NCBI GenBank assembly: GCA_048213135.1
Contig: PS015140.1
Location: 1 to 64,000 of the forward strand
Length of the DNA: 64,000 nt
Source: Reclinomonas americana ATCC 50394
Taxonomy: Eukaryota
Direction: 5' to 3'
Of the stretch, positions 11,001-37,255 are shown one piece after another; the stretch's first letter is position 1, and each line of letters starts with the position of its first letter. Both the position numbers and the translations under genes were made by a program. The notes under the pieces were generated by a model. It was not told the origin of the DNA, did not search any database, and saw nothing but the letters and a program-made list of their open reading frames with translations.

Positions 11001-14000
11001 TCTGTGCCAGTCGCTGGCACGCACTCGCCACGCTCGCGCAGTGTACCTGCAGCAGCGGCGTGACGTTGTGCAGCTGCAAGCTTGCATTCGTTCATGGATT
11101 CAGCGCCGCCGATTTGTGGCACTGCGTGAAGCGGCGATCACTGCACAGTCGTTCTGGCGCATGTTTGTGGCACGCCAGCGATACACGGCGCTGCAGCGTG
11201 CGGCGCAGACGATGCAGACGGCATTCCGTCGTCGTCAGGCGCTTGTGCGATATCGCAGCGCACGCGCGGCCATTATCAACATGCAGAAGGTGTGGCGCGG
11301 TCGATGCGCCCGGCTGTGGTTTGCCCGACAAGTGCAAGCGGTTCGCGTTGTCCAGTCGTTTATCCGCATGGTGCCGTCGCGAGTAAGGTGAAAAGGGTCA
11401 AGGGTCCTTCCCCTCCTTCCCCTCCTTCTCCTCCTTCTCCTCCTTCTTCTCCTTCTCCTCCTCCTCCTCCTCCTCCTTCTCCTCCTTCCTCCTCCTTCTC
11501 CTCCTTCCTCCTCCTTCTCCTCCTTCTCCTCCTTCTCCCCTTCTCCCCTTCTCCTCCTTTTCTCCTTTCTCACCCCCTTCTCCCTTGCGCACAGATTCGT
11601 GAAGCAACGCCGCGCGGCGGTGATCGTCCAGGCAGCTGCACGCATGTGGATTGCTCGTCACCAATTTGAGCGCACCCGCCGTTGCATCATTACGACGCAG
11701 GCGGTGGCCCGCCAATTCATGTTGCGTTGCATCTATGACACTCTCTCTTCCCGAATAGCAAAGTTGCTGACTGCCACTTCCTTGCCCCTTAGTGCACGCC
11801 GCGACTACCTCCACACACGACGCAGCATTGTTAGCATTCAGAGTCTTGTGCGCGGCTTCCTGGATCGCCGTACGGCCAGCCGCCGCCTGGCAGCCATTGT
11901 GCTGGTGCAAGCCTGTGCTCGCTCGTGGCGCCAGCGACGCATGTACGTCACACTGCGCGCAGCCGCAATGCGCACGCAAGTGTTGTGGCGTGCCAAGCGT
12001 GCCGGTGCAATGTGCGTTGCCTTCTAGTTTCTTTGCCACCAACCCCCGCCACGTCGTGCCTCATTCATTCGCATTCACAGCGCACGCGCCCAATTCCTTC
12101 GCCTGCGCCGCGCCACCACCACACTGCAGAGTGCAGTTCGCGGGCTCTACGCTCGTCGCCAATTCACCTCCACTCGCCGTGCCATTGTGCGCCTGCAGGC
12201 CATGGTACGCGGCCGCCAGCAGACGATGCAATATACTCGTCTGCGAAATGCCGCTTGCGTCATGCAGCAGCGCTGGCGTGCGCGAGTGGCCGCCTTGCAG
12301 TTTCGCTTCCCGTACTCTCGCCCCCTGAGTCGTTGATCTTTCTCACTTTCCCTGTTTGCATCCTCAGTGCTCGTGAGCAGTACACATACACTCGCAATGC
12401 GGTGGTGTTGCTGCAGTCGATGCGTCGCATGGCGTGCGTTCGCCGCGAGTTCACCAATCTCCGCGAGGCCGCAGTCGTGTTCCAGAAGAATGCGCGCAGC
12501 TGGCTCACTCGCCGTCAGTACGCTGCCACTCGTGCGGCGGCATTGACCGTGCAGGCTCGTCGCCGAGCACTTTTGGCGGGTCGTCGGTGCGTAGCAAAGT
12601 GTCTCTAGAAGACGTGCTGTTCTCAGAAAGAAGACTGACAAGAAGAATGTATCACACACAGGGACCTGGCTGCCTTCCAGCACGCCCGGCAATCCGCCAT
12701 TCGCGTGCAAGCATGGTGGCGTGCTCGTTTGGCTTCCATCCGCTGGCAGTCCATGCGCGCTGCCTGCATTCGCTTGCAGGCCTGGACACGTGGTCGTCAG
12801 CAGCAGGCTCGCTACACGACCATGCGCCGCGCGGCAATTCGCATTGCCGCCACTGTTCGTCGTCATCGCGCACAACAGCAGTTCACGCAACTGCGCCTCG
12901 CTGCCATCTCTGTGCAGTCGCACTTCCGTCGCTTGTGCGCCGTGCGACTGGCCTCCCAGCTGCGAGTGGAGCGTGAGGAACGCATTCGCGTGGAGAAGCT
13001 GCGAAACGCCGCGGCCGTGCACATTCAGCGCCTGTTCCGCACGTACATGCTGCGCAGTCGACGAGTGGAGTATGTGCAGGCGGTGGCCTGCATCTCACAC
13101 TGGTGGATTGGCGTGGTGACTCGACGGGCGTACATTCAGCTGCAGGAGGTGAGTGTGCGCGAGAGAAGGGAATGGGTCTGAGAAGAAAAGAGATCTCTCT
13201 TTGGGAGAAGCAAGAGAGCTCTCTGTGAGAAGAGAGCTCTCTGTGAGAAGAGAAAAGAGACCTCCTTCTCTTTAACAGAAGTGAAAAGAGAACTATTCGC
13301 TCTCGCTGAGAAGAAGAGAGATCTCTCTGTGAGCAGAGAAAAGAGAACTCTCTTTGTGAAAAGAAAAGAGAGCTCCCTCTGTGGGAAGAAACGAGAATTT
13401 TCTTCCTCTCTGAGAAGAGAAAAGAACTCTCTCAGAGAAGAAAAGAGAACTCCTTCAGAGAAGAAAGAGAACTCCCTGTGGGAGAAAAGAGAATTTTCTT
13501 TCTCTCTCTTTGAGAGAAGATGGAGAGCTCTCTCACAGAGAAGAAAAGAACTCTCTCTCTCTCTCAGAGAAGAAACGAACTCTCTCTCAGAGAAGAAACG
13601 AACTCTCTCTCAGAGAAGAAACGAACTCTCTCTCAGAGAAGAAAGAACTCTTTCTCTCTGAGAAGAAAAGGAGAACTCTCTCTCTCTCCCTTTCACTCTT
13701 GCTACTCCATTGCCTTGTCTCTTAAACTGTGGTGCGTGTCGCAGAACATTCGCCAGGAGCAATCGCGACGTCTGGCTGCGACTGTGAATATTCAGCGCAT
13801 GGTGCGTGGTTTCCTGCAGCGACGCCGCTACCAGCGCACGCTCGCCGGCGTCGTCCGCATGCAGGCAATGTGGCGAGGTCATGCGGTGCGCAAGGCCAAC
13901 AGCCGCCGCGTGGAGCGCACTCGGGCCAAGATTCGCGCCGTGTCGGCGCATGTGCCAGAAGATCGCAAGCTGCGCCACCGCACAAGCAGCGCCTTGTCGG

Positions 14001-14848
14001 TGCTGCTCACCAGCAAGACGCTGTCGTTCTTGTTGCAGGCCTGCGAGACTCTTGGTACGTGCACACAAACACACACGCGCTGTGGATGGAAGGAGGCTCA
14101 CTTTCTCACGATGCGCGACAGAGATCACCACGCGCCTGCTGAAGGAGTGCTGCGTGCGTCTGGTGGAGGAGGATGCGGTGCCCATCATCTTTGCGCTGAT
14201 TCGCTCGTGCAATCGGAGCAAGCCGCATCAGGAGGTGCTGCGATTGTGCTTGAGGTGAGAAGCGAAGAGTTTATCGGCAAGACGTCACCAAATGCCGTTG
14301 CTGACTGTTTTTTCCCTTGCTTCCAGAATTCTGGTGCACGTGTCGCGCCACACCGAGTTTGTGAGTGCCGTGTATGAGTGCGAAAACAGTGTGGACACGC
14401 TGTCGGAGCTGCTGCAAATGTTCCGAGACCGCCACGAAGTCCTCAGCGACGTATTCGCCGTGCTGTTCAGCTTTGCCAGCGACGCACGCCGAGCATCGGT
14501 GAGTGCACTTGCGTGGCAATTGTTGCCTGCATTAGAGACTCACTCCCCCGCCATTCTGCGCAGGCAATCTTCCACATGAAGGACGTGATGAAGCGCCTCA
14601 ACGGCATCAAGGCCATCCTCAGCACCAAGTTCAAGGTGGAGTCGTACAAGCAACCGCGCGCTGGCACCTCAGCTGCGCCCGCCGCCTCGGCCTCCTCTGC
14701 CGGCGTGCAGTCGAGTCTCGAGCAACTGCAAGCACTCGTTGCCTTGGTGGAATCCGCGCGCCACTGGCAGCCCGAATCCGACGATGGCGATGCCTCGTCG
14801 ACCGTGTCGTCGTCGTCGTCGTCGATGCAGGATGATGGCGCGCACTGA
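2077..14848 (+). CDS. ASPM: Abnormal spindle-like microcephaly-associated protein (ASH domain, CH domains, long IQ-repeat region, C-terminal helical region); about 28 exons
   Basis: ASH-like segment (VEFANAVPGETSVQRLVLRNTG); ASPM hallmark DVGLQGHFLNLLLCYNPIWLRLGLE; CH motifs DLRDGLRLCKLIE, KDIVTGHRQRTLALLWKII and VTNFTSSFGDGKALCLLIHHYQP; PDEKVVITFVAYL; dozens of IQxxxR motifs at 8800-13900; C-terminal IRSCNRSKPH. Exons join in frame with GT-AG introns. A gap at 2431-2869 lies in intron 1. Confidence 0.95.
10060..10345 (+). repeat. Intronic (CTCACTGCCTCCTTCT)n minisatellite in ASPM
   Basis: Tandem ~16-bp units. Confidence 0.85.
13180..13685 (+). repeat. Intronic ~23-bp minisatellite (GAGAAGAAACGAACTCTCTCTCA)n in ASPM
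   Basis: Degenerate copies grade into exact copies at 13560-13640. Confidence 0.8.
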
Positions 14849-14982: not shown

Positions 14983-16074
14983 ATGTCAATCGCTCCTCAC
15001 ACGCTCCCGCACAAGTGCCTGCTCGGTCACAACAAGTCGGTGTGGTCTGTGGCCGTCACTCCCGACGGTCTGCATGCTGTGAGTGGCGGCATCGACAAGA
15101 CAGTGCGAGTGTGGTCGCTGGCGACTGGAGAACAAGTGCGGCGACTAGAGGGGCACAAGCACTGGGTAGCATGCGTCACTGTCGCACCCGATGGTCACAT
15201 TGTGAGCGGCGGTGAGGACAGGACTGTGCGTGTGTGGTCTCTCGAGAGCGGCGATGAGGTGCGACGAATGGAGGGACACACAGATTGTGTGTCATCTGTC
15301 GCCGTGTCTCCAGATGGTGTGTACCTGGCGAGTGGGAGCCATGATTTCACAGTGCGAGTGTGGTTGATGGTGAGTGGACGCGCGTTGCAGACGCTCATTG
15401 GGCACAACAGCGCCGTCTGCTCTGTGGCCTTCACTCCTGACGCGCAGCACATTGTCAGTGGTGGTACCGACGCGCGTGTGCGAGTGTGGTACGTGGAGAG
15501 TGGGGAGGAGGTGATGCGGATGGTGGGTCACACTTTAGCTGTGTTCTCGGTTGCTGTCACCGCCGACGGTCTTCATGTGGTGAGTGGGAGTGATGACAAA
15601 ACAGTGCGAGTGTGGTCGCTGGAGAGTGGGGCGGAGGAGCGACAGATGGAGGAGCACACTGGGTGGGTGCGGTCGGTGGCTGTCGTTCTCTCCAGTCCAC
15701 GCACTATGGTGAGCGGCAGCTGCGACAAGACCGTGCGAGTGTGGTGCGTGGAAAGTGGGGCGCAGCGGTGGCGGCTGAAGGGGCACACCAGTGCAGTGCG
15801 GTCGGTTGCCGTCACTCGCGATGGCCTGCACATTGTGAGTGGTGGTGAGGACTGTACGGTGCGGGTGTGGTCCACGCCGTGCGGCCTCGCGAAGGAGGAG
15901 CTGGAGTGTACTCGGGTGGCAATGCGCGTCGTGCAGGAGATGGTGAGAGAGGAGGCAGAGGAGGAGGCAGAGGATCCGCGCTGCTTGGTGGAGATTGTGC
16001 TGCGCTGCTTCTTGGTGGAGGAGGCGGAGGTGGTGGTGCATCGGTGTTTCCATGATGACCGCCTCCGACTGTGA
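14983..16074 (+). CDS. WD40 array gene 1 (7 WD40 repeats + conserved C-terminal tail), intronless
   Basis: Seven GH..V..VAVTPDG..VSG..D.TVRVW repeats, then GLAKEELEC...EDPRCLVEIVLRCFLVEEAEVVVHRCF. Confidence 0.9.
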   Translation: MSIAPHTLPHKCLLGHNKSVWSVAVTPDGLHAVSGGIDKTVRVWSLATGEQVRRLEGHKHWVACVTVAPDGHIVSGGEDRTVRVWSLESGDEVRRMEGHTDCVSSVAVSPDGVYLASGSHDFTVRVWLMVSGRALQTLIGHNSAVCSVAFTPDAQHIVSGGTDARVRVWYVESGEEVMRMVGHTLAVFSVAVTADGLHVVSGSDDKTVRVWSLESGAEERQMEEHTGWVRSVAVVLSSPRTMVSGSCDKTVRVWCVESGAQRWRLKGHTSAVRSVAVTRDGLHIVSGGEDCTVRVWSTPCGLAKEELECTRVAMRVVQEMVREEAEEEAEDPRCLVEIVLRCFLVEEAEVVVHRCFHDDRLRL

Positions 16075-16398
16075 CGAAGGAAGAAGGATGGTCTTGGCTG
16101 GCTTCATGTGAGTGTCTTTTTCTGCCTTGCACGCACGAGAGGAGAGCGAGAAACCTCGCTGCCTGGCGGAGATTGTGATGCGTTGCTTCTTGGTGGAGGA
16201 GGCCGCTCCGTTTGTTCTTCGTTTCGTGTTTCCTTTTCGCTTCTTGATGGTTTACTACTATGTATGTATGCATTAAAGCAACCAACTCACTCATTCCGAG
16301 ACGACGGAGGCAAACGTCGGCGAAGGCACAATGTCCGTGCGAAATCATTGTCACGTCAATCACGCACGCACGCAGACCGTCTTTCTCTCTCTCGCACC

Positions 16399-17475
16399 AT
16401 GTCACTGACACTCCCGCACAAGTGTCTGCGCGGGCACACCGACTATGTGTCATCCGTCGCATTCACTCCCGACGGCCAACACATCGTGAGCGGGAGTTAC
16501 GATAATACCGTGCGAGTGTGGTCGCTGGCGACTGGAGAACAAGTGCGGCGACTAGCTGGGCACGCGCACTGGGTGGCATGTGTCACTGTCACCCCCGATA
16601 GTCTCCATATTGTCAGTGGCGGTGTGGACATGACGGTGCGTGTGTGGTCTCTCGAGAGTGGCGAGGAGGTGCGACGAATGGAGGGACACACACAATGCGT
16701 GTCATCTGTCGCCGTGTCTCCGGATGGTGTGTACCTGGCGAGTGGAAGCTATGATTCCACAGTGCGAGTGTGGTCGATGGTGAGTGGACGATCGTTGAAG
16801 GCGCTCATCGGGCACAACTACGACGTCTGTTCTGTGGCCTTCACTCCCGACGCACAACACATTGTCAGTGGTGGAATAGACGGTCGTGTGCGAGTGTGGT
16901 GCGTGGAGAGCGGGGAGGAGGTGAGGCGGATGGAAGGCCACACTTTGCCGGTGCTCTCCGTTGCTGTCACCGCCGACGGTGTCCACGTCGTGAGTGGCAG
17001 CGAAGACAGAACAGTGCGACTGTGGTCGCTGGAGAGTGGGAAGGAGGAGCGACTGATGGAAGGGCACACTGGGTGGGTGTGGTCAGTCACAGCTTCTCCC
17101 AGCGGTCGACACGCATTGAGCGGAGGAAATGATGTGCGTGTGTGGTCGCTGGCGAGTGGGCAGGAGGTCCTTCGGTTGGAGGAACACGATGAGGCTGTAT
17201 CGTCTGTCGCCGCCTCTCCCGACAGTCGGCGCATTGTGAGTGGGAGCCTGGACCTCACCATCCGGGTGTGGACCACTCTGTTCGGCCTTGCGGAGGAGGA
17301 GCTGGAGAGTGCGCGGGCGGCAATGTGCATTGTGCAGGAGATGGTGAGAGAGGAGGCAGAGGAGGAGGCAGAGGATCCGCGCTGCTTGGCGGAGATTGTG
17401 ATGCGCTGCTTCTTGGTGGAGGAGGCGGAGGTGGTGATGCATCGGTGTTTCAATCATGAACGCCTCCGACTGTAA
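16399..17475 (+). CDS. WD40 array gene 2
   Basis: Start placed at the conserved MSLTLPHKCLRGH; 7 repeats + tail. Confidence 0.9.
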   Translation: MSLTLPHKCLRGHTDYVSSVAFTPDGQHIVSGSYDNTVRVWSLATGEQVRRLAGHAHWVACVTVTPDSLHIVSGGVDMTVRVWSLESGEEVRRMEGHTQCVSSVAVSPDGVYLASGSYDSTVRVWSMVSGRSLKALIGHNYDVCSVAFTPDAQHIVSGGIDGRVRVWCVESGEEVRRMEGHTLPVLSVAVTADGVHVVSGSEDRTVRLWSLESGKEERLMEGHTGWVWSVTASPSGRHALSGGNDVRVWSLASGQEVLRLEEHDEAVSSVAASPDSRRIVSGSLDLTIRVWTTLFGLAEEELESARAAMCIVQEMVREEAEEEAEDPRCLAEIVMRCFLVEEAEVVMHRCFNHERLRL

Positions 17476-18006
17476 CGAAGGAAGAAGGATTATCCTGCCA
17501 GTTCATTGTGCGTGTCTTCTTTCTGCCTTGCACGCACGAGAGGAGAGCGAGAAACCTCGCTGATGCGCTCCTTCTCTGTGTGTCAGCGACGATCGCGTCC
17601 GACTTTGGCCTGCCTTCTTTGTTTCTTGTTTCTTTCAGCTTCATGATGTTGTTGTACTTTGTACGTATAAAAGCAACCAAGTCACTCATTCCGAGACGAC
17701 GGAGGCAAACGTCGGCGAAGGCACAATGTCCGTGCGAAATCATTGTCACGTCAATCACACACGCACACAGAGCGTTCTCTCTCGCCCACGCACCCTCACA
17801 CTCCCTCTCCCTCTCCTCCCTCTCTCTCTCTCTCTCTCTCTCACACTATCGTCTACTNNNNNNNNNNNNNNNNNNNNATCCGTCGCGAAATACACTTGTT
17901 CACGTCAATACACACACGCACACAGAGCGTCTCTCTCGCCCACCGCACCCTCCACACTCCCTCCTCCCTCCTCCTCCCTCCTCTCTCTCTCTCTCTCTCT
18001 CGCACC

Positions 18007-19089
18007 ATGTCACTGACACTCCCACGCAAGTACCTGCGTGGGCACACCGGTTCCGTCTGGTCAATCGCCCTCTTCCCCGATGGCCTGCACGCTGCGACGG
18101 GAAGCCTGGATATGACCGTGCGAGTGTGGTTGCTGGCGAGTGGCGAAGAAGTGCGACGATTTGAGGGGCACACGGAATGGGTGGCGTGCGTAGCAGTTGC
18201 TGCCGATGGTCAGCACGTGGTGAGTGGGGCATACGACGATACAGTACGAGTGTGGCCACTGGCGGATGGAGAGCAAGTGCGAGTGCTGAAGGGACACACT
18301 GATGCGGTGTGGGCTGTCGCGATCACTCCCGATAGCCAGTACATTGTGAGTGGGAGCGCGGATGACACCGTGCGCGTGTGGTCACTGGCGAGCGGTGAGC
18401 AACTGAGACTGTTGGAGGGACACACTGTGTGGGTGAACGCTGTCACTGTCACTCCCGATGGACAACTCGTTGTGAGTGGCAGCACCGACACCACTTTGCG
18501 TTTGTGGTCTGCGGCAAGCGGAGAACAAGTGCGGCAACTGGAGGGCCACAGTGCCATGGTGTCGTCCATTGCTGTCACCCCCGATGGCCGGCACATTGTC
18601 AGTGGCAGTCGCGACGAAACAGTGCGCGTGTGGTGCACGGAGAGCGGAGAGGAAGTGCGACGGATGGAAGGGCACAGCGAATGGGTGCAGTCTGTTGCCG
18701 TCACTCCCGATGGTCAGCACATTATCAGCGGGGGTGACGACAAGACCGTGCGCGTGTGGTCGCTGGCGAGCGGGGAGGAATTGTGGCGATTGGAGAAGCA
18801 TGTTGGAAACGTGCGATGCGCTGTTGTCAGTCTCGACGGCCAGTACATTGTGTGCAGCAGTGAGGAGAATACGGTGCAGATGTGGTTCACGCCGTGCGGC
18901 CTCGCAAAGGAGGAGCTGGAGTGTGCGCGGGTGGCAATGTGTGCAGTGCAGGAGATGGTGAGAGAGGAGGCAGAGGAGGAGGCAGAGGATCCGCGCTGCC
19001 TGGTGGAGATTGTGATGCGCTGCTTCTTGGTTGAGGAGGCGGAGGTGATGGTGCGTCGGTGTTTCAATGATGACCGCCTCCGGTTGTGA
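18007..19089 (+). CDS. WD40 array gene 3
   Basis: MSLTLPRKYLRGH start; 7 repeats + tail. Confidence 0.9.
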   Translation: MSLTLPRKYLRGHTGSVWSIALFPDGLHAATGSLDMTVRVWLLASGEEVRRFEGHTEWVACVAVAADGQHVVSGAYDDTVRVWPLADGEQVRVLKGHTDAVWAVAITPDSQYIVSGSADDTVRVWSLASGEQLRLLEGHTVWVNAVTVTPDGQLVVSGSTDTTLRLWSAASGEQVRQLEGHSAMVSSIAVTPDGRHIVSGSRDETVRVWCTESGEEVRRMEGHSEWVQSVAVTPDGQHIISGGDDKTVRVWSLASGEELWRLEKHVGNVRCAVVSLDGQYIVCSSEENTVQMWFTPCGLAKEELECARVAMCAVQEMVREEAEEEAEDPRCLVEIVMRCFLVEEAEVMVRRCFNDDRLRL

Positions 19090-19479
19090 CGTGGGAAGAA
19101 GGATGGTTTTGGCTATTCATTGTGCGTGTCTACTTTCTGTCTTGCACGCACAAGAGGGGGGCGAGGAATCTCACAGCCTTGGCGGAGATGGTGCTGCGCT
19201 GTTTCTTGGTGGAGGAGGCGACGTCGAGGATTGTCTTGCAGAAGTGTTTCCATGATGGCGGCCTCCGCTTGCGACCAACGAAGAAGAAAGGTGGTGGCTG
19301 CAGTTCTCTTCTGCGCGCGGCAGAGTTTCTGCTGTTTTGTTTGCATTAAACAACCAGGAAATGCAGTGCCTCCTCATTTCGATAAACGTCGGGCGGTATG
19401 TCCTTATCATCTACCACCACACGCTCGGAGAATTCCGTTTCTCTCTCTTTGCTCTCTCCCTCTCTTATACACACACGTC

Positions 19480-20565
19480 ATGTCACTGACGCTCCCGCAC
19501 AAGTGCCTGCTCGGTCACAACAGTTCGGTGTGGTGTGTGGCTGTCACTCCCGACGGTTTGCATGCTGTGAGTGGCAGCATCGACAAGACAGTGCGAGTGT
19601 GGTCGCTGGCGACTGGAGAAGAAGTGCGGCGACTGGAGGGACACAAGCACTGGGTAGCATGCGTCACTGTTACTCCCGATGGTCTCCACATTGTGAGTGG
19701 CGGCGTGGACAGGACTGTGCGTGTGTGGTCTCTCGAGAGTGGCGAGGAGGTGCGGCGATTGGAGGGACACACAGATTGTGTGTCATCTGTCGCCGTGTCT
19801 CCCGATGGTGTGTACTTGGCGAGTGGAAGTCACGATTCCACAGTGCATGTGTGGTCGATGGTGAATGGGCGATCGTTGAAGGCACTCATTGGACACACCG
19901 ACGCCGTCTGTTCTGTGGCCTTCACTCCCGACGCGCAACACATTGTCAGCGGTGGCGCAGACGCGCGTGTGCGAGTGTGGTGCGTGGAGAGTGGGGAGGA
20001 GGTGAGGCGGATGGTGGGTCACGCTTCGCCGGTGCTCGCCGTTGCTGTCACCGCCGACGGCGTCCACGTCGTGAGTGGGAGTGATGACAAGACAGTGCGA
20101 GTGTGGTCGTTGGAGAGTGGGGCGGAGAAGCGACTGATAAAGGAACACACTGGGTGGGTGTGGTCGGTGGCTGGCACTCCCTCCAGTCCAAGCACTATGG
20201 TGAGCGGCAGCTGGGACAAGACCGTGCGAGTGTGGTGCTTGGAAAGTGGGGCGGAGCGGTGGCGACTGGAGGGGCACGTCTGTGCAGTGCGGTCTGTTGC
20301 CGTCACTCGCGACGGTCTGCACATTGTGAGTGGTGGTGAGGACTGTGCGGTGCGGGTGTGGTCCACGCCGTGCGCTCTGGCTCGGCAGGAGCTGGAGTGT
20401 GCACGGGCGGCAATGTGCATTGTGCAGGAAATGGTGAGAGAGGAGGCAGAGGAGGAGAGCGAGGATCCGCGCTGCTTGGTGGAGATTGTGATGCGCTGCT
20501 TCTTGGTGGAGGAGGCGGAGGTGTTGGTGCATCGGTGTTTCCATGATGACCGCCTCCGACTGTGA
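19480..20565 (+). CDS. WD40 array gene 4
   Basis: MSLTLPHKCLLGH start; close paralog of genes 1 and 5. Confidence 0.9.
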   Translation: MSLTLPHKCLLGHNSSVWCVAVTPDGLHAVSGSIDKTVRVWSLATGEEVRRLEGHKHWVACVTVTPDGLHIVSGGVDRTVRVWSLESGEEVRRLEGHTDCVSSVAVSPDGVYLASGSHDSTVHVWSMVNGRSLKALIGHTDAVCSVAFTPDAQHIVSGGADARVRVWCVESGEEVRRMVGHASPVLAVAVTADGVHVVSGSDDKTVRVWSLESGAEKRLIKEHTGWVWSVAGTPSSPSTMVSGSWDKTVRVWCLESGAERWRLEGHVCAVRSVAVTRDGLHIVSGGEDCAVRVWSTPCALARQELECARAAMCIVQEMVREEAEEESEDPRCLVEIVMRCFLVEEAEVLVHRCFHDDRLRL

Positions 20566-20920
20566 CTTGGGAAGAAGGATGGTTTTGGCTATTCATTGTG
20601 CGTGTCTACTTTCTGTCTTGCACGCACAAGAGGGGGGCGAGGAATCTCACAGCCTTGGCGGAGATGGTGCTGCGCTGCTTCTTGGTCGAGGAGGCGGAAG
20701 TTGTCTTGCAGCAATGTTTCAATGATGGCGGCCTCCGATTGTGACGAAGGATGAAGAATGGTGGTGGCTGCAGTTCTCTTCTGCGCACGACAGAGTTGCT
20801 GCTGTTCTGTTTGCATTAATGTGAGATAAACGTCGGGCGGTATGTCCTTATCATCTACCACGCGCTCGGAGAATTCCGTTTCACTCTCTTTGCTCTCGCC
20901 CTCTCTTATACACACACGTC

Positions 20921-22006
20921 ATGTCACTGACGCTCCCGCACAAGTGCCTGCTCGGTCACAACAAGTCGGTGTGGTGTGTGGCCGTCACTCCAGACGGTCT
21001 GCATGCTGTGAGTGGCGGCATCGACAAGACAGTGCGAGTGTGGTCACTGGCGACTGGAGAAGAAGTGCGGCGACTAGAGGGACACGCGCACTGGGTAGCA
21101 TGCGTCACTGTCGCACACGATGGTCTTCACATTGTGAGTGGCGGTGTGGACAGGACTGTGCGTGTGTGGTCTCTCGAGAGTGGCGAGGAGGTGCGACGAA
21201 TGGAGGGACACACAGATTGTGTGTCATCTGTCGCCGTGTCTCCCGATGGTGTGTACTTGGCGAGTGGGAGCCACGATTTCACAGTGCGAGTGTGGTTGAT
21301 GGTGAGTGGACGCGCGTTGCAGACGCTCATTGGGCACAACAGCGCCGTCAGTTCTGTGGCCTTCACTCCCGACGCACAGCACATTGTCAGCGGTGGTGCA
21401 GACGCGCGTGTGCGAGTGTGGTGCGTGGAGAGCGGAGTGGAGGTGAGGCGCATTCATGGCCACACTTCGCCGGTGCTCGCCGTAGCTGTCACTGCCGACG
21501 GCATCCACGTCGTGAGCGGGAGTTATGACAAGACAGTGCGAGTGTGGTCGCTGGAGAGTGGGAAGGAGGAGCGACGGATGGAGGAGCACACTGCTTGGGT
21601 GTGGTCGGTGGCTGTCGTTCCCTCCAGTCCACGCACTATGGTGAGCGGCAGCTGGGACAAGACTGTGCGAGTGTGGTGTGTGGAAAGTGGGGCGGAGCGG
21701 TGGCGACTAGAGGGGCACACCAGTGCAGTGCGGTCGGTTGCCGTCACTCGCGATGGCCTGCACATTGTGAGTGGTGGTGAGGACTGTGCGGTGCGGGTGT
21801 GGTCCACGCCATGCGGCCTCGCGAAGGAGGAGCTGGAGTGTGCTCGGGCGGCAATGTGCATTGTACAAGAGATGCTGCGAGAGGAGGCAGAGGAGGAGGC
21901 AGAGGATCCGCGCTGCTTGGTGGAGATTGTGCTGCGCTGCTTCTTGGTGGAGGAGGCGGAGATGGTGGTGCATCGGTGTTTCAATGATGACCTCCTCCGG
22001 TTGTGA
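20921..22006 (+). CDS. WD40 array gene 5
   Basis: MSLTLPHKCLLGH start; close paralog of genes 1 and 4. Confidence 0.9.
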   Translation: MSLTLPHKCLLGHNKSVWCVAVTPDGLHAVSGGIDKTVRVWSLATGEEVRRLEGHAHWVACVTVAHDGLHIVSGGVDRTVRVWSLESGEEVRRMEGHTDCVSSVAVSPDGVYLASGSHDFTVRVWLMVSGRALQTLIGHNSAVSSVAFTPDAQHIVSGGADARVRVWCVESGVEVRRIHGHTSPVLAVAVTADGIHVVSGSYDKTVRVWSLESGKEERRMEEHTAWVWSVAVVPSSPRTMVSGSWDKTVRVWCVESGAERWRLEGHTSAVRSVAVTRDGLHIVSGGEDCAVRVWSTPCGLAKEELECARAAMCIVQEMLREEAEEEAEDPRCLVEIVLRCFLVEEAEMVVHRCFNDDLLRL

Positions 22007-22069
22007 CGTGGGAAGAAGGATTATCTTGGCTGGTTTCATTGTACGTGTCTTCTTTCTGCCTTGCACGCA

Positions 22070-22450
22070 CGAGAGGAGAGCGAGAATCCTCGCTGCCTGG
22101 CGGTCTTGATCGAGGAGGTGCATCGGTGTTTTGCTGACGATCGTCTCCGGTTGTGACGAAGGAAGAAGGATGGTCTTGGCTGTTCATTGTACGTATTTTC
22201 TTTCTGCCGTGCACGCACGAGAGGAGAGCGAGGAGCTTCGCAGCCTGGCGGAGATCGTGCTGCGCTGGTTCTTGGTGGAGGATGCGGACGTGATGGTGCA
22301 ACGGTGTTTTGCTGACGATCGCATCCGACTGTGACGTGGGAAGAAGGATGGAGTTGAGCGTGTCTTCTTTCTGCCTTGCACACACGAGAGGAGTGCGAGA
22401 AACCTCGCTGATGCGCTGCTTCTCTGTGTTTCAGCGACGATCGCCACCGA
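22070..22450 (+). pseudogene. Serial degenerate duplicates of the WD40-gene tail plus 3'UTR (also at about 16137-16202, 17536-17570, 19150-19272 and 20628-20744)
   Basis: Intergenic copies translate as REESEELRSLAEIVLRWFLVEDADVMVQRCFADDRIRL* and similar; the more complete copies are followed by the same GGAAGAAGGAT-type 3'UTR start. Confidence 0.75.
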
Positions 22451-22657
22451 CTGTGACCTGCCCCTTCTTTATTTCGTGTTTTCTTTCAGCTTCATGATGG
22501 TGTACTACTTTGTAATAAAGCAACCAAGTCACTCATTCCGATACGACGCAGGCAAACGTCGGCGAAGGCGCAGTGTCCTTGTGAAACCGACGTCAATCAC
22601 GCACGCACTCCCTCTCCCTCTCCTCACTATCTCTCTCTCTCTCCTCACTCTCCCGCC

Positions 22658-23710
22658 ATGTCACTGACACTCCCTCACAAATGCCTGCGCGGGCACACCG
22701 ACTTTGTGTCGTCCGTCGCATTCACTCCCAACGGCCAGCACATCGTGAGCGGGAGTTCAGATGAAACCGTCCGAGTGTGGTCTGTGGTTAGCTGTGAGCA
22801 AGTGCGAGTGCTGGAGGGACATGACGGCGGGGTGACTTCTGTGGCCGTCACTCCTGACGGTCAACACGCTGTCAGCGGAGGCATGGACAAGACAGTGCGT
22901 ATGTGGTCACTGGCGAGCGGCGAGCAAGTGCGACGGTTTGATGGGCACAGTGGGGAGGTGTGGTCTGTCGCCGTCACTCCGGACGGGCAGCATGTGGTGA
23001 GCGCGAGTGACGATCACACGGTGCGAGTGTGGTCTGTGGCGAGTGGTGATGAGGTGCGCCGGTTGGAGGCACACGGTCGGCAGGTCTATTCTGTCGCTGT
23101 CGCTCCCACTGGCGAGTACATTGTGAGCGGGCACCACGACAACACCGTTCGCGTGTGGTCGCTGGCGAGCGGAGAGGAGGTGCGACGGTTGAAGGGGCAC
23201 ACTGAGTGGGTGCAATCGGTTGCCGTCACCCCCGATGGTCTCCACGTGGTGAGTGGCGGCGAAGACAAGGCGCTGCGAGTGTGGTCACTGGCGAGCGGGG
23301 AGGAGATGTGGCGGATGGAGGGGCACACAAGAACGGTGTATTCGGTCGCCGTCACACCGAGCGGTCGACACGCTCTGAGTGGAGGAAACGACGAGACGGC
23401 GCGTGTGTGGTCGCTGGCGACTGGCAAGGAAGTGTATCGGCTGGAGGGACACGATGAGGCGGTGTCGTCTGTTGCCGCCTCTCCCGACAGTCGGCGCATT
23501 GTGAGTGGGAGCCTGGACCTGACCATCCGGGTGTGGACCACTCCGTGCGGTCTCGCGGAGGAGGAGCTGGAGTGTGTGCGGGCGGCAATGTGCATTGTGC
23601 AGGAAATGGTGAGAGAGGAGGCAGAGGATCCGCGCTGCTTGGTGGAGATTGTGATGCGGTGCTTCTTGGTTGAGGAGGCGGAGGTGGTGCTGCATCGATC
23701 GGTGTTGTAG
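22658..23710 (+). CDS. WD40 array gene 6
   Basis: MSLTLPHKCLRGH start; 7 repeats; tail slightly shortened, ending HRSVL. Confidence 0.9.
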   Translation: MSLTLPHKCLRGHTDFVSSVAFTPNGQHIVSGSSDETVRVWSVVSCEQVRVLEGHDGGVTSVAVTPDGQHAVSGGMDKTVRMWSLASGEQVRRFDGHSGEVWSVAVTPDGQHVVSASDDHTVRVWSVASGDEVRRLEAHGRQVYSVAVAPTGEYIVSGHHDNTVRVWSLASGEEVRRLKGHTEWVQSVAVTPDGLHVVSGGEDKALRVWSLASGEEMWRMEGHTRTVYSVAVTPSGRHALSGGNDETARVWSLATGKEVYRLEGHDEAVSSVAASPDSRRIVSGSLDLTIRVWTTPCGLAEEELECVRAAMCIVQEMVREEAEDPRCLVEIVMRCFLVEEAEVVLHRSVL

Positions 23711-23962
23711 TGATCGCTTGTAACTTGAGTTCTGTGTGTCTATTCTTTGCCTATTGACGGTGTCCAACTTGCACTGTATGAATTAAAGCAACCACGTTAT
23801 CTTTGTTGAGACAAGCACAGAAGTTGAGTCCGTCGTCGAAGGCCCGAAAACATTGCTTTTTGTCCTCGACATCATCCATTGAACACGCACCGTCTCTCCC
23901 TCTCCCTCTCCCTCTCCCTCATTCGCTCTCTCTCTCTCTCTCTCTCCTCAATCTCTCACAAC

Positions 23963-25021
23963 ATGTCGTTCACTCTGCCACACAAGTGGCTGAGCGAGCA
24001 CACAAGAGCCTGGCACACCGGCTATGTGATGTGTGTCGCATTCACTCCCAATGGCCAGCACATCATAAGTGGGAGTTGTGATACCACCGTGCGCGTGTGG
24101 TCTGTGACGAGTGGACAAGAAGTGCAACAGATGAAGGGACACGCCAACCAGGTTTTTTCTGTCGCCGTCACTCCCGACTGTCGGCATGTGGTGAGTGGCA
24201 GTAAGGACACAACAGTGCGATTGTGGTCACTGGCGAGTGGGAAGGAGGTACGACGGATGGAGGGACACAGTGATGCGGTGTGGTCTGTCGCTGTCACCCC
24301 GGACGGGCAGCATGTGGTGAGCGGGGGCGATGATCACACAGTACGAGTGTGGTCTGTGGCGAGTGGTGACGAAGTGCGTCGGCTGGAGGGACACACAGAA
24401 ACAGTGTGGTGTGTCGCCGTCGCTCCTGACGGTGAGCATGTGCTCAGTGGGAGCGCTGACATGACAGTGCGCATGTGGTCGCTGGCAAGTGGCGAGGAAG
24501 TGCGACGGCTGGAAGGGCACACTGGATGGGTGATATCTGTCGCCGTTACTCCCGATGGTCTCCACGCGGTGAGTGGCGGTGACGACAGCACTGTGCGAGT
24601 GTGGTCGATGGTGACCGGGGAAGAGGTGCGACGAATGAGGGGACCCTTCGATACAGTGAATAGTGTCGCCGTCACTCCCGATGGTCAGCACGTTGTCAGT
24701 GGAGGAGACGATTTCACTGTGCGTGTGCGGTCGCTGGCGAGTGGGCAGGAAGTGCGACGGTTGGAGGGCGACATTTGTGCCGTCTCTCCCGATGGTCAGC
24801 ATATTGTCTATGCGTGCAAGGACGCGATCCGAGTGTGGTCCACGCCGAGAGGCCTGGCTCGACAGGAGCTGGAGTGTGCGTGCTCAGCCATGCATGTGGT
24901 GCAGGAAATGCAGAGCGACAACCCGCGCTGCCTGGTCGAGATTGTGATGCGGTGCTTCTTGGTTGAGGAGGCGGAGGTGGTGGTGCATCGGTGTTTCAAC
25001 GAGGACCGCCTCCGCTGGTGA
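23963..25021 (+). CDS. WD40 array gene 7
   Basis: MSFTLPHKWL start; seventh repeat partly deleted; tail present. Confidence 0.85.
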   Translation: MSFTLPHKWLSEHTRAWHTGYVMCVAFTPNGQHIISGSCDTTVRVWSVTSGQEVQQMKGHANQVFSVAVTPDCRHVVSGSKDTTVRLWSLASGKEVRRMEGHSDAVWSVAVTPDGQHVVSGGDDHTVRVWSVASGDEVRRLEGHTETVWCVAVAPDGEHVLSGSADMTVRMWSLASGEEVRRLEGHTGWVISVAVTPDGLHAVSGGDDSTVRVWSMVTGEEVRRMRGPFDTVNSVAVTPDGQHVVSGGDDFTVRVRSLASGQEVRRLEGDICAVSPDGQHIVYACKDAIRVWSTPRGLARQELECACSAMHVVQEMQSDNPRCLVEIVMRCFLVEEAEVVVHRCFNEDRLRW

Positions 25022-25192
25022 CGGAGGAAGAAGAATGGGCTGTGCGTTGCTCTTTTACGTACAACAGAGTACTGCTGTTTTGTATATAAACCATGATGTG
25101 CATTCCTCCATTCCGAGACGCCTCAGGGAAAACGTCGACGAAGAGTGTCCTCGTCCTCAGTCTCGTTTTCCCTCCTATCCCACTCTCGCGCC

Positions 25193-26251
25193 ATGTCGCT
25201 GACTCTGCCTCACAAGTGCCTGCGTGGACACACCGACTCTGTGACGTGCGCCACGTTCACTCCCGACGGCCAGCACATCATAAGCGGGAGTTGTGATATG
25301 ACCGTGCGAGTGTGGTCGGTGACGAGTGGAGAGGAGGTGCGAGTGCTGGAGGGGCACACAGATGAGGTGCTCTGTGTCGCCGTCACCCCTGACTGTGAAC
25401 ACGTTGTGAGTGGTGGTGAGGATAGGACTGTACGTGTGTGGTCACTGGCGAGTGGGGAGGAGGTGCGCCGACTGCAAGGCCACAAAAAAGCGGTGCTGTG
25501 TCTCTCCGTCACTCCTGATGCGCTCCACGTTTTGAGTGGAAGTTGGGACAACACAGTGCGAGTGTGGTCGCTGGCCAGCGGGGAGGAAGTGGGTCGGCTT
25601 GAGGGACACGATGGGCAGGTCTATTCTGTCGCCGTCACTCCCGACGGTCAACACGCTGTGAGTGGGAGTTCTGACACGACACTGCGAGTGTGGTCGCTGG
25701 CAAGTGGCGAGGAAGTGCGACGGCTGGAGGGGCACACTAGCTGGGTGTACTCGGTCGCTGTCACTCCCGATGGTCTGCACGTGGTGAGTGGCTGCGACGA
25801 CAGCACTGTGCGAGTGTGGTCACTGGCAAGCGGCGAAGAGGTGCGACGGTTGGAGGGGGACATTGGATCGGTGCTCTCGGCTGCCGTCACTCCCGATGGT
25901 CAGCACGTTGTCAGTGGCGGCGTCGACAGCATCGTGCGTGTGTGGTCGCTGGCAAGTGGGCAGGAGGCGCGTCGGCTGGCGGTACACACTTACATGTCGT
26001 GTGTTGTCGTCTCTCCCAACGGGCGGCACATTGTGAGTGGCAGTGAGGACCTCACAGTCCGAGTGTGGTCCACACAGTTTGGTCTGGCGCAGGAGGAGCT
26101 TGACAGCGCACGGCTGGCAATGCACGCCGTGCAGGAGATGCAGCGACGAGAGGAGAGTGAGGATCTGCGGTGTTTGGTGGAGATCGTGCTCCGCTGCTTC
26201 ATGGTCGAGGAGGCGGAGGTGGTGGTGCATCGGTGTGTTGGTCTCCTTTGA
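25193..26251 (+). CDS. WD40 array gene 8
   Basis: MSLTLPHKCLRGH start; 7 repeats + tail ending HRCVGLL. Confidence 0.9.
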   Translation: MSLTLPHKCLRGHTDSVTCATFTPDGQHIISGSCDMTVRVWSVTSGEEVRVLEGHTDEVLCVAVTPDCEHVVSGGEDRTVRVWSLASGEEVRRLQGHKKAVLCLSVTPDALHVLSGSWDNTVRVWSLASGEEVGRLEGHDGQVYSVAVTPDGQHAVSGSSDTTLRVWSLASGEEVRRLEGHTSWVYSVAVTPDGLHVVSGCDDSTVRVWSLASGEEVRRLEGDIGSVLSAAVTPDGQHVVSGGVDSIVRVWSLASGQEARRLAVHTYMSCVVVSPNGRHIVSGSEDLTVRVWSTQFGLAQEELDSARLAMHAVQEMQRREESEDLRCLVEIVLRCFMVEEAEVVVHRCVGLL

Positions 26252-26445
26252 GAAGAGTTGGCTGTGTTGTCCTTTTGCGTGTCTTTCTATGTCGCTTGTT
26301 GTTGGTGTTGTAGCGCTGTGAGTGTATTAAAAACAACGAGACGCTGAGTTTATTCGCACCCCATTCAGAGACGCTGCAGGTGAACGTCGACGAAGCGTGT
26401 CCTCGTACTTTCAATCACTCTCTCCTCACCTCCCACGCTCGAACC

Positions 26446-27513
26446 ATGTCACTGGCGCTGCCACACAAGTGCCTGCGTGGACATTCTTGTATCGTGACGT
26501 GTGTCGCGTTCACTCCCGATGGCCAGCACATCATAAGCGGGAGTGAAGATGCCACCGTGCGAGTATGGTCGGTGAGGAGCGGAGAACAGGTGCGAGTGCT
26601 GGAGGGACACATAGATGAAGTGTTCTCCGTCGCCGTCACTCCCGACTGTGAACACGTTGTGAGTGGTGGTGAGGATAAGACTGTACGTGTGTGGTCACTG
26701 GCGAGTGGGGAGGAGGTGCGTCGACTGCAAGGCCACAGACGAAAGGTGCTGTGTCTCTCCATCACTCCTGATGGTCTCCACGTTCTGAGTGGAAGTTGGG
26801 AGCACGCAGTGCGAGTGTGGTCACTGGCCAGCGGGGAGGAAGTGAGACGGCTGGAAGGACACACGTGGGCCGTGTTCTCTGTCGCCGTCACTCCCAACGG
26901 TCAACACGCTGTGAGTGGGAGCGCTGACACCACAGTACGACTGTGGTCGCTGGCAAGTGGCGAGGAAGTGCGTCGACTGGAAGGTCACACGAGTAGGGTG
27001 TGGTCAGTGGCAGTGACACCCGATGGCGAGCACGTGGTGAGTGGAGGTGACGACTGTACGATACATGTGTGGTCACTGGCAAGTGGAGAGGAGGTGCGAC
27101 GGTTGGAGGGAGACATTGGATCGATGCTCTCGGTTGCCGTCACTCCCGATGGTCAGCACATTGTGAGTGGTGGTACGGGCTGCAGAAATTCTGTGCTTGT
27201 GTGGTCGCTGGCGCGTGGGCAGGAAGTGCGTCGGTTGGAAGGACACACTGAAACCGTGTCGTCTGTTGCCGTCTCTCCCAACGGGTGGCACATTGTGAGC
27301 GGCGACGAGGATAACACGATCCGAGTGTGGTCCACGCCGTTTGGTCTGGCTCGGGAGGAGCTGGAGTGTGCGCGTGCGGCAATGTGCGGTGTGCAGGAGA
27401 TGCAGCGACGAGAGGAGGCAGAGGATCCGCGCTGCTTGGCAGAGATCGTGCTCCGCTGCTTCATGGTCGAGGAGGCGCAGGTGGTGGTGCATAGATGTGT
27501 TGGTCTCCTTTGA
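26446..27513 (+). CDS. WD40 array gene 9
   Basis: MSLALPHKCLRGH start; close paralog of gene 8. Confidence 0.9.
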   Translation: MSLALPHKCLRGHSCIVTCVAFTPDGQHIISGSEDATVRVWSVRSGEQVRVLEGHIDEVFSVAVTPDCEHVVSGGEDKTVRVWSLASGEEVRRLQGHRRKVLCLSITPDGLHVLSGSWEHAVRVWSLASGEEVRRLEGHTWAVFSVAVTPNGQHAVSGSADTTVRLWSLASGEEVRRLEGHTSRVWSVAVTPDGEHVVSGGDDCTIHVWSLASGEEVRRLEGDIGSMLSVAVTPDGQHIVSGGTGCRNSVLVWSLARGQEVRRLEGHTETVSSVAVSPNGWHIVSGDEDNTIRVWSTPFGLAREELECARAAMCGVQEMQRREEAEDPRCLAEIVLRCFMVEEAQVVVHRCVGLL

Positions 27514-27692
27514 CAAGAGTTGGCTGTGTCGCCCTTCTGCGTGTCTTTCTATGTCGCTTGTTGTTGGTGTTGTAGTGCTGTGAGTGTATTATAAACCAAC
27601 GAGACGCTGAGTTGACGCTGCAGGTGAACGTCGACGATGAGCGTCCTCGTCCTCAATCGCATTTGTCTCCTCTCTCTTCTCACGCTCGAACC

Positions 27693-28754
27693 ATGTCACT
27701 GACACTCCCACACAAGTGCCTGCGCGGACACACCCGAGAGGTGCTCGCTGTCGCCGTCACTCCCGATGGCCAGCACATCGTAAGTGGGAGTGAAGATGCC
27801 ACTGTGCGAGTGTGGTCTGTGAGGAGCGGAGAACAAGTGCGAGTGCTGAGGGGACATGGCGGAGGGGTGACTTCTGTGGCAGTCACTCCCGATGGGCAGC
27901 ACGTGGTGAGTGGTGGCGATGATAACACCATGCGATTATGGAATGTGGCAAGTGGCGAGGAAGTACGGCAGTTCGAAGGACACACTGGTGCGGTGCACTC
28001 TGTCGCTGTCACTCCCGACGGTCAGCATGTGGTGAGTGGGAGTGAGGACCGGAGTGGGCGAGTGTGGTCGCTGGCGAGTGGGAAGGAACTGCGGCGGCTG
28101 CAGGGTCTCATCTTTGTGGTGTGCTCTATCGCCGTCACTCCCGACGGGCAGCACATTGTCGGCGCGAATGGGGACGAGACCGTGCACGTGTGGTCGCTGG
28201 TGAGTGGCGAGGAAGTGCGACGGCTGAAGGGGCACACTGAAATGGTGTGGTGTGTCGCCGTCGCTCCTGACGGTGAGCATGTGGTGAGCGGGAGTGACGA
28301 CACAACAGTGAGATTGTGGTCGCTGGCGAGTGGCACGGAAGTGCGGCGGATGGAAGGTCACACTAGCACGGTGTACTCGGTCGCTGTCACTCCCAGCGGT
28401 CAGCACGTTGTTAGCGGAAGTGAGGACAACACCGTGCGAGTGTGGTCGCTGGCGAGTGGCACAGAAGTGCGTCGGTTGGAAGGACACACTGACTGGGCGA
28501 CTGCTGTCGCCGTCTCTCCCGACGGGCAGCGCATGGTGTGCAGCAGCACAGAGCACACTGTGCGAGTGTGGTCCACTCCGTGGTGTCTGGCTCGGGAGGA
28601 GCTTGACAGCGCACGGCTGGCAATGTGCGGTGTGCAGGAGATGCAGCAACGAGAGGAGAGCGAGGATCTGCGGTGTTTGGCAGAGATCGTGCTCCGCTGC
28701 TTCCTTGTCGAGGAGGCGGAGGTGGTGGTGCATCGGTGTTTTAGCGATGACTGA
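27693..28754 (+). CDS. WD40 array gene 10
   Basis: MSLTLPHKCLRGH start; 7 repeats + tail ending HRCFSDD. Confidence 0.9.
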   Translation: MSLTLPHKCLRGHTREVLAVAVTPDGQHIVSGSEDATVRVWSVRSGEQVRVLRGHGGGVTSVAVTPDGQHVVSGGDDNTMRLWNVASGEEVRQFEGHTGAVHSVAVTPDGQHVVSGSEDRSGRVWSLASGKELRRLQGLIFVVCSIAVTPDGQHIVGANGDETVHVWSLVSGEEVRRLKGHTEMVWCVAVAPDGEHVVSGSDDTTVRLWSLASGTEVRRMEGHTSTVYSVAVTPSGQHVVSGSEDNTVRVWSLASGTEVRRLEGHTDWATAVAVSPDGQRMVCSSTEHTVRVWSTPWCLAREELDSARLAMCGVQEMQQREESEDLRCLAEIVLRCFLVEEAEVVVHRCFSDD

Positions 28755-29739
28755 CAGAGGAAGAAGGATGGGGTTGCCTGCATTTCTCTTCTACGTGTCT
28801 TTCTGTTTCGCCTGTTGTTTGGTGTTTTTTGAGTGTATAAGAGCAACAAGACGCACATATTACACCTGTGTTGATATCCAAAACATTGGTGAGGGCAGCG
28901 ACAGGAACAACAACAACAACNNNNNNNNNNNNNNNNNNNNNNNNNNNNNNNNNNNNNNNNNNNNNNNNNNNNNNNNNNNNNNNNNNNNNNNNNNNNNNNN
29001 NNNNNNNNNNNNNNNNNNNNNNNNNNNNNNNNNNNNNNNNNNNNNNNNNNNNNNNNNNNNNNNNNNNNNNNNNNNNNNNNNNNNNNNNNTTCTGCGATAG
29101 TACACGCCACATCGAATTCGGGGAAAGGCCATAAGCCAGGCAAACAAAGCAAAGCAAAGTCGCTGCGGACCGGATCCGGATCCGAGCAGCAAGCAAAGCG
29201 GTGGAGGTAAAAAGCTGAACGACAAACCGCGACAACAACATGCACTTCAACTGTTCGCGACGCCGCTAGAGTTTGGACCATCATTGCAGATGAGTGCAGA
29301 CTAATTGCAAGTCGAAATGGGAGGCAGAAGGCCTTTGCAGAAAAACCAAAATCAATTCCGGTTTCTCGAGTTCGAATTCCACCAGAAGACTCTTACTGTG
29401 GTGTCGCCAGAGTCCTTAATGTAGCCATTGGTTCTCAAGGCTCGGGGTGCTTGAACCGTACCGCGGCTGCGAGCTCGAGGCGCAGTTGCGAACTGCAAGT
29501 CGAATTCGGATCGATATCTGGAAATCTGCGCGGACTCAGCAAATAACACGCGGATTGCTTTCATCCTTAACCCGCTCCACTCTCGCTTCACATCACGCGG
29601 CATAAAAAAGCCCATTTTTGCATTTCACCGTCAATTCGAACGATCGCCGAACCGGAGTCCGCTCGCCGAATCCGTCGGCGATCGCTCGCGCCGTCGTCAT
29701 CTAATCCATCATCTTCTCATCCACTCACACGCGAAAGCC

Positions 29740-37255
<7,516 letters not shown>

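Follow-up and report, generated by a model that had tools for sequence, protein, structure and literature searches.

A tandem array of ten seven-blade WD40 genes with a common C-terminal tail in Reclinomonas americana: a candidate family of stand-alone adaptors

A 64,000-nucleotide stretch of Reclinomonas americana ATCC 50394 DNA (assembly GCA_048213135.1, contig PS015140.1, positions 1 to 64,000; hereafter the window) contains, at positions 14983-28754, ten consecutive genes, each of which encodes a single seven-blade WD40 propeller followed by a C-terminal tail common to all. The locus raises the question of what such a set of propellers, differing in themselves and ending alike, could be for. 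On balance, we consider the array to be probably a lineage-specific family of WD40 adaptors that stand alone, have diversified in specificity and have a tail in common for docking or assembly. Purifying selection acts on both the propeller scaffold and the tail, replacement is concentrated at the canonical contact positions of the top face (R1-2, R1, D-1 and those adjoining them), and recombination or gene conversion has moved tails, 3′ flanks and segments the size of a blade between the genes. In such a family the propellers would be binding modules of differing specificity, the common tail would dock them onto one shared partner or assemble oligomers, and the whole would act as a set of interchangeable adaptors.

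A standard-code listing of open reading frames (ORFs), together with a script, located ten intact ORFs of 350-363 amino acids on the + strand, separated by gaps of 171-651 bp (324, 531, 390, 355, 651, 252, 171, 194 and 179 bp between consecutive genes), which confirmed the initial annotation of ten closely spaced, same-strand genes. The common start motif MS(I/L/F)..LP(H/R)K and the common, alignable tail of 57-67 amino acids that had been described were both found in all ten. Mean column identity was 74% in the full-length alignment and 81% in the tail, and identity to gene 1 ranged from 57 to 90%. For genes 2 and 4 the longest ORF opens upstream (at 16264 and 19252, respectively), the conserved MSLTLPHK start being located at 16399 and 19480; in-frame extensions of this kind are present in these two genes only, and are short and not conserved.

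Every ORF is open through seven blades and the tail. This lack of interruption, together with the completeness of the gene 1 model described below, supports the earlier view that the genes are intronless. The accompanying statement that the neighbours are intron-rich holds in so far as the upstream gene with calponin-homology (CH) and IQ motifs and the downstream ABC-2 gene are both divided into many short coding pieces. A 20-N scaffold gap (17858-17877) separates genes 2 and 3, and a 169-N gap (28921-29089) follows gene 10, the window having 18 N runs and 1557 N in total. Because of these gaps the copy number is a minimum, and the gene order across the first gap depends on scaffolding.

The strongest departure from the repeat pattern was observed in gene 7, which has 'GPFD' in place of 'GHT' and one blade ending in VRVR instead of VRVW. 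Although its ORF is intact, this gene may be degenerating.

All ten proteins matched Pfam WD40 (PF00400, best E 3.5e-81), and three that were analyzed in detail each contained 6-7 stretches above threshold. No NTPase family was detected among the best 25 families per protein for these three or among the first 25 of 59 families for all ten, the latter 25 being exclusively WD40 or beta-propeller families. The ORFs open directly at blade 1, and no fusion to NACHT or NB-ARC of the kind that defines STAND and NOD-like receptors (NLRs) was present among the families listed; within that scope, the proposal that each gene is a propeller plus tail with no NTPase was borne out. No Pex7-named family was among the Pfam families listed for the array proteins either. 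The Gcp1-3 or Pex7-like WD40 proteins of jakobids and heteroloboseans (PMC8134430), considered here on account of the Reclinomonas match described below, would be recognised by a specific relationship to Pex7 and by occurring together with mitochondrial type II secretion system genes.

The structure of the gene 1 protein was modelled with AlphaFold2 on the alignment of the ten paralogues (mean pLDDT 87.7, pTM 0.83). The model has 28 strands in residues 10-297, corresponding to seven four-stranded blades, and pLDDT exceeded 90 in every 10-residue block of residues 11-300 bar one, which was at 80. It places the first strand, residues 10-14, in the 'leader' ahead of blade 1, consistent with velcro closure. 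The leader, initially regarded as a separate module, is in this model the N-terminal strand that closes blade 7, and not a targeting peptide. Judged by eye, the N-terminus has no hydrophobic stretch and the proteins are probably cytosolic.

The closest solved relative by sequence was 2ymu_A ('Structure of a highly repetitive propeller structure', E 6.9e-213), and the Foldseek neighbours of the propeller were the PkwA WD40 domain (5yzv, TM-score 0.97, target-normalised), the designed seven-blade WRAP-T and 2ymu. Taken together, phmmer and Foldseek place the propeller beside PkwA, 2ymu and designed seven-blade propellers (WRAP-T/Tako8). The Foldseek alignments end at approximately 300 columns, and hence no solved structure matches the tail. 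A search with full-length proteins returned 5249 generic WD40 matches, the best 120 of which had at most 55% identity. Seven of these 120 were aligned; one of them, P0045, has a faintly tail-like C-terminus and was rejected as a relative (hhalign probability 4.9%, E 0.008). PADLOC gave a single generic match, to the WD40-like part of the large model HEAT-ARM_XIII, in all ten proteins, which is uninformative.

To locate the variation among the propellers, the ten proteins were cut into 70 repeats and aligned. Most columns were almost fixed, among them H, D and W (65, 66 and 69 of the 70 repeats, respectively) and V, while the five most variable columns were GH+2, GH+3, GH+5, D-1 and D+1, with 3.4-3.7 bits and 14-18 residue types each; variation is thus limited to a few top-face codons per repeat. 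According to the accessible part of Wu et al. (2012, PMC3419727), the top-face interaction hotspots of WD40 proteins are R1 in (V/L/I)-R1-R2-(V/L/I), R1-2 and D-1, and these account for three of the five columns. At 21 hotspot codons fixed a priori the paralogues differed at 80% of residues as against 33% in the remaining propeller, and W, Y or F were often found there.

Selection was assessed by the Nei-Gojobori method. All 45 pairs had a propeller omega (dN/dS) of 0.25-0.38, their dS running from 0.17 (genes 1-5) to 1.30; for the tail, omega was 0.13-0.67 in 44 pairs, the exception being genes 1-2 (1.10). Propeller dS values of up to about 1.0-1.3 at an omega near 0.3 indicate that the copies are old and constrained, and are neither recent duplicates nor pseudogenes. 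In the seven least saturated pairs omega was 0.21-1.49 at the 21 hotspot codons and 0.26-0.36 elsewhere in the propeller, and the excess of replacement at hotspots over the remaining propeller was significant in three of the seven (p 0.007-0.035). For genes 4-5, the proportion of nonsynonymous differences (pN) at hotspots, 0.04, was significantly lower than the proportion of synonymous differences (pS) in the propeller, 0.16 (p = 0.02). The five columns chosen by entropy gave omega values of 0.6-3.4, but the deep pairs are saturated and selecting columns in this way is circular. Pairwise counts have little power on paralogues that recombine. Overall, the binding face appears to undergo fast replacement at a roughly neutral rate, and this pattern fits relaxed constraint as well as diversifying selection. 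The initial expectation of a diversifying repertoire was supported as regards the focusing of variation on the ligand-binding top face and found no support as regards positive selection: hotspot omega was 0.2-1.5 and never significantly above 1, and the whole propeller was at about 0.3 in each of the 45 pairs.

Analysis of per-blade nucleotide identity revealed that the nearest partner switches along the genes. Blades 1 and 7 of gene 2 share 90% identity with those of gene 6; its blades 2-5 are 84-93% identical to genes 1, 4 and 5 but just 52-76% identical to gene 6, and gene 1 was favoured at 149 of 175 informative sites within codon columns 45-235 as compared with 23 of 117 outside. Similarly, gene 8 tracks gene 9 save for blade 5, which is 90% identical to that of gene 7. 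In two-breakpoint maximum chi-square analysis of three triplets, the observed value was reached in none of 200 shuffles each. Among the 70 repeats, 56 had their nearest match in the same blade of another gene, 13 in a different blade of another gene and one within its own gene, in another blade. The main process was therefore duplication of whole genes combined with exchange in register; out-of-register cases, such as gene 10 blade 5 with gene 7 blade 4, were few. The suggestion of a birth-and-death family was supported in that both duplication and exchange between paralogues are evident, with the tail conserved.

Repeat identity within each of the ten genes was 0.50-0.60. Cut-offs of 0.7 and 0.4 are used for the classes of repetitive WD40 proteins in the accessible part of Hu et al. 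(2017, PMC5587647), on which scale the array is moderately repetitive, falling short of the value of at least 0.7 that marks highly repetitive proteins. For the repeats of fungal HNWD genes, the portion of PMC12222747 that could be consulted gives 80-100% identity within a gene.

The tail has the pattern of two amphipathic helices with a 'VLRCF' core. In the gene 1 model it forms helices at residues 299-325 (pLDDT 72-79), 332-344 and 347-355 (both pLDDT 33-56). In the predicted layout an acidic linker joins a long helix to an amphipathic 'VLRCF' helix. Sixteen positions are invariant in 12 aligned tails (T2, L6, A7, E10, L11, A17, V21, E23, L39, V43, R45, C46, F47, E50, A52 and R58). A zinc-finger reading of the tail cysteines was rejected, as there is a single invariant Cys (in 'RCF') across the 12 tails. 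When the tail was read against the BC-box consensus, no spacing resembling L-x3-C-x3-[AILV] was seen. A complex prediction with two copies of the 67-residue tail had a score of 0.00 and gave no answer, and weighs neither way on self-association.

At the nucleotide level the tail behaves differently from the propeller. Tails are 87-93% identical among genes 1-6 and 84-89% among genes 8-10, where the propellers are as low as 52-75%. In eight within-subgroup pairs pS was 0.16-0.31 for the tail and 0.48-0.58 for the propeller (Fisher p 0.003 to 1.5e-6), and tail dS was 2-3 times below propeller dS within subgroups; in two between-subgroup pairs the synonymous difference of the tail equalled that of the propeller. 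The 3′ flanks follow the tails: over the 80 nt past the stop, genes 3 and 4 are 99% identical, though their blades are at 56-74%, and other pairs among genes 1-5 are 79-92% identical. The low tail pS within subgroups and the similarity of the 3′ flanks indicate that the tail and 3′ flank have been homogenised by gene conversion in two subgroups. Between subgroups tail omega was about 0.2, showing that the protein itself is conserved as well. The tail that had been noted as constant is thus indeed shared by all ten genes and conserved between subgroups, while part of its constancy is due to gene conversion. A single gene of this array combines two evolutionary regimes: the propeller diverges and is exchanged as a mosaic, and the tail and 3′ flank evolve in concert.

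When a tail profile built from all ten genes was run against a library of 1.84 billion representative proteins drawn from public genomes and metagenomes, only two matches were found. One, P0121, is a 116-residue ORF from an expressed sequence tag (EST) labelled Reclinomonas americana in EukProt and consists of a last blade and the full tail (E 2.6e-20). Its identity is 57-64% to eight of the array proteins and 43% to genes 3 and 7, in longer, gapped alignments. Since this record is EST-derived, a homologue is transcribed in the organism of that record. The other, P0122, is a 394-residue protein on a 2262-bp contig, 23-28% identical over its full length and with the tail at its C-terminus; as it shares propeller and tail despite its distance, the unit must be older than the array. 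A word search for the tail among longer proteins found only P0122, which was itself in the query alignment. Scanning of metagenome contigs for the tail pattern matched 88 stretches, none of which was confirmed, and ESM Atlas gave no usable tail match; in neither collection did the window's own proteins turn up. Within the 64-kb window, the tail was not found beyond the array genes and the relics described below.

Several known systems resemble the array in part. The fungal HNWD NLRs of Podospora anserina (HET-E, HET-D, NWD), as far as the accessible text of PMC12222747 covers them, have a 42-residue repeat, with a few hypervariable codons in each on the predicted interaction surface, and paralogue recombination; unlike the array, their repeats are 80-100% identical, variable in number, and fused to HET and NACHT. 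The array genes have 0.50-0.60 internal identity, seven ordered blades, a novel tail and no NTPase or effector among the families listed. Thus the likeness to HNWD and STAND proteins that had been pointed out holds for the self-similar, bacterial or STAND-like repeat type (2ymu, PkwA, WRAP-T/Tako8) and not for the degree of identity. The highly and moderately repetitive WD40 proteins of bacteria and protists, so far as Hu et al. (2017) could be consulted, include the closest sequences and folds (2ymu, 5yzv) and are likewise highly conserved except at hotspots; they usually have more repeats and other fused domains, and none was found there with the array tail.

No F-box or SOCS box, the mark of WD40 substrate receptors, was present among the families listed for the full-length array proteins. 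F-box/WD40 receptors and WD40 receptors with a SOCS box (WSB type) combine a variable propeller with a short constant helical box. By analogy, the array proteins would pair a variable propeller with a constant helical module of about 40-60 residues, which is C-terminal in the WSB type also. Self-similar WD40 repeats with variable contacts are known as the sensor ends of STAND and NLR proteins in fungi and bacteria, whereas here the propeller stands alone. It has a fixed number of seven blades, is repeated tenfold in tandem and is joined to a tail with no described family; public protein data hold almost nothing related to this tail, and the open-access literature searched gave no account of an array of this type. 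If the tail is a docking or assembly module, the array would represent a new way of linking varied binding modules to one shared effector, in a eukaryote lineage that has been little studied, and would provide a short protein-protein interaction motif open to testing.

A number of observations weigh against the adaptor reading. In none of the seven unsaturated pairs was hotspot pN significantly higher than pS (p 0.23-1), and with hotspot omega never significantly above 1 the differing specificities are something that we infer. Top-face positions, moreover, differ among the blades of any WD40 protein. As to the tail, its second half is modelled at low confidence, and its constancy within subgroups is partly the result of gene conversion and not of protein-level selection alone. 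When two of the ten tails were compared with Pfam at E values up to 10, no F-box, SOCS box or other family was found, a single match being at chance level (E = 1); the comparison with substrate receptors is for this reason an analogy only.

Part of this evidence is what would be expected if the genes were ordinary paralogues of similar or redundant function, with for instance a dosage, structural or scaffold role, the hotspot variation reflecting relaxed constraint on surface loops and the tail being a structural extension. A hotspot omega near 1 and not above, the uniform overall omega of 0.3 and the low hotspot pN of genes 4-5 can all be accounted for in this way. Such copies would be expected to decay or to be homogenised over their whole length, but all ten are intact at dS of up to about 1, the tail alone is homogenised, and the hotspot residues, often W, Y or F, are 80% different; we regard this explanation as unlikely. 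An immune or non-self repertoire, in which the propellers would detect molecules of pathogens or of other foreign origin and pass the signal via the tail to one executor, much as NLR sensor domains provided in trans, seems to us improbable. It would agree with the mosaic structure of the genes, with a repeat type and variable positions shared with highly repetitive WD40 proteins and with the WD40 sensors of the fungal NLRs HET-E and HET-D, as these appear in the accessible parts of the sources cited, and with the presence in the same window of a highly repetitive WD40 gene (0.77 internal identity, same variable positions). Yet no NTPase, death-fold, TIR or other effector domain was present among the first 25 of 59 Pfam families, the tail occurs nowhere else in the window, and PADLOC offered its one generic WD40-like match only. 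Nor does the absence of a significant hotspot omega above 1 favour it, and with dS of about 1 and 56 of 70 repeats keeping their blade position the array is unlike the fast repeat turnover of HNWD genes. A further reading supposes a germline-encoded, NTPase-free recognition repertoire, in which old but continually reshuffled propellers, each with its own binding face, would plug via the helical tail into a single hub, be it a degradation machine or an executor of signalling or cell death. An NLR-like system would then have its sensor part supplied in trans, in a protist whose closest tail-bearing relative is a sequence with a jakobid EST label, and the relic half-tails would record the recombination by which the plug stays constant. 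We put this forward tentatively and consider it rather doubtful.

Two explanations that deny the array a native, functional origin appear highly improbable. The genes could be non-functional copies (retrocopies or pseudogenes) or an artefact of collapsed or duplicated haplotypes in the assembly, and it is true that they are intronless beside neighbours in pieces, that N gaps lie within and directly after the array, and that blade 7 of gene 7 is shortened. Ten intact ORFs with omega near 0.3 and a homologue among ESTs (P0121) are not what non-functional copies would show; as for an artefact, the copies differ by roughly 5-45% of nucleotides per blade, far beyond haplotypes, and each has its own flanks, with conserved upstream boxes. 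Recent horizontal acquisition of a bacterial WD40 gene followed by local amplification, to which we assign an equally slight chance, would explain the lack of introns and the nature of the relatives: the best solved one is Nostoc 2ymu, followed by actinobacterial PkwA, and the few source-named rows among the best 120 of 5249 matches include cyanobacterial and planctomycete proteins. Against this, the copies are old, the same repeat type is found in other genes of the window, and the only tail relatives among 1.84 billion proteins are the EST fragment labelled as a eukaryote (Reclinomonas americana) and P0122. Furthermore, the GC content at third codon positions of the ten genes (0.62-0.72) is near that of four flanking coding pieces (0.70-0.77), and thus offers no hint that they came recently from a foreign source.

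Partial second copies of the last 30-40 tail codons were found 60-220 nt past the stop codons of genes 1, 3, 4 and 5 (Table 1). Behind genes 4 and 5 these relics have kept an open frame with a stop at the homologous place. From their sequence, the relic half-tails look like footprints of exchange of the tail and 3′ flank. A pyrimidine-rich stretch that ends in AG precedes each of them, and they may also represent an alternative last exon.

Upstream of the genes, the conserved box AACGTCGRCGAWG has six exact matches on the + strand, all of them ahead of array genes. In addition to the copy before gene 2 (Table 1), these are at 17708, 22555, 25131, 26383 and 27627, before genes 3, 6, 8, 9 and 10, respectively. 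The box lies 62-103 nt before the ATG of genes 2, 6, 8, 9 and 10, and farther from that of gene 3, on the other side of the N gap. When a single mismatch was tolerated, the window contained nine matches in all, as compared with 0.66 expected by chance. CT-rich tracts are also present before the start codons. These elements would fit individually controlled genes, and duplication alone could also explain them.

Table 1. Positions of the array genes, relic half-tails and conserved upstream box within the window.
Feature	Position	Strand	Description
Gene 1	14983..16074	+	363 aa, seven-blade WD40 propeller and 67-aa tail; ORF listing, AlphaFold model
Gene 2	16399..17475	+	358 aa, mosaic: blades 2-5 like gene 1, remainder like gene 6
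Gene 3	18007..19089	+	360 aa, most divergent propeller; tail and 3′ flank homogenised with genes 1, 4 and 5
Gene 4	19480..20565	+	361 aa
Gene 5	20921..22006	+	361 aa
Gene 6	22658..23710	+	350 aa, 57-aa tail
Gene 7	23963..25021	+	352 aa, 5-residue insertion in blade 1, shortened blade 7 (36 aa)
Gene 8	25193..26251	+	352 aa; blade 5 like gene 7, remainder like gene 9
Gene 9	26446..27513	+	355 aa
Gene 10	27693..28754	+	353 aa; tail nearest to gene 8 tail
Relic of tail second half, behind gene 1	16133..16243	+	tblastn E 6e-10
Relic half-tail behind gene 3	19149..19271	+	
Relic half-tail behind gene 4	20637..20741	+	in-frame stop at homologous position
Two relic half-tails behind gene 5	22046..22331	+	in 148-nt tandem duplication 21967-22251 (end of coding sequence and 3′ flank)
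Conserved upstream box AACGTCGRCGAWG	16313..16325	+	copy before gene 2

Two further WD40 sequences are present in the window. An ORF on the - strand at 62314-63999, cut off by the end of the window, comprises at least 11 repeats, each of 42 residues. Ten regular 42-residue repeats of this ORF have a mean internal identity of 0.77, above the 0.7 cut-off, and are variable at the same hotspots as the array; the genome accordingly also has classic highly repetitive WD40 genes. The C-terminus of this ORF is unlike the array tail, and its N-terminal part lies outside the window, where an NTPase or effector domain is possibly encoded. From this common stock of repeats the array is an older offshoot of fixed length. 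The second sequence, at 41105-41368 (+), is an isolated WD40 fragment of about two repeats of the array type, surrounded by repeat-rich sequence; it represents either a relic or one exon from a split gene.

The array is preceded by a multi-piece gene at 7800-14400 (+) with a calponin-homology domain (E 1.3e-9) and many IQ-like motifs, a domain set that we take to be that of abnormal-spindle (ASPM)-type proteins. It is followed at 30900-36600 (+) by an ABC-2-type transporter in several pieces, whose Pfam matches are weak and fall short of the curated cut-offs. At 59300-60900 (-) there is an ORF for an MFS_1 transporter (E 5.4e-10); a word-based protein search with it returned nothing at E <= 1e-5. 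No Rfam family reached the gathering threshold anywhere in the window. A 461-codon open frame at 42880-44262 (+) consists of three near-identical units of about 150 residues, each beginning with MDELLRAIHSLLREL. Finally, CT/GA and CA/TG microsatellites are very abundant throughout the window, and with them low-complexity frames (SLSL..., THSL..., RERE...).

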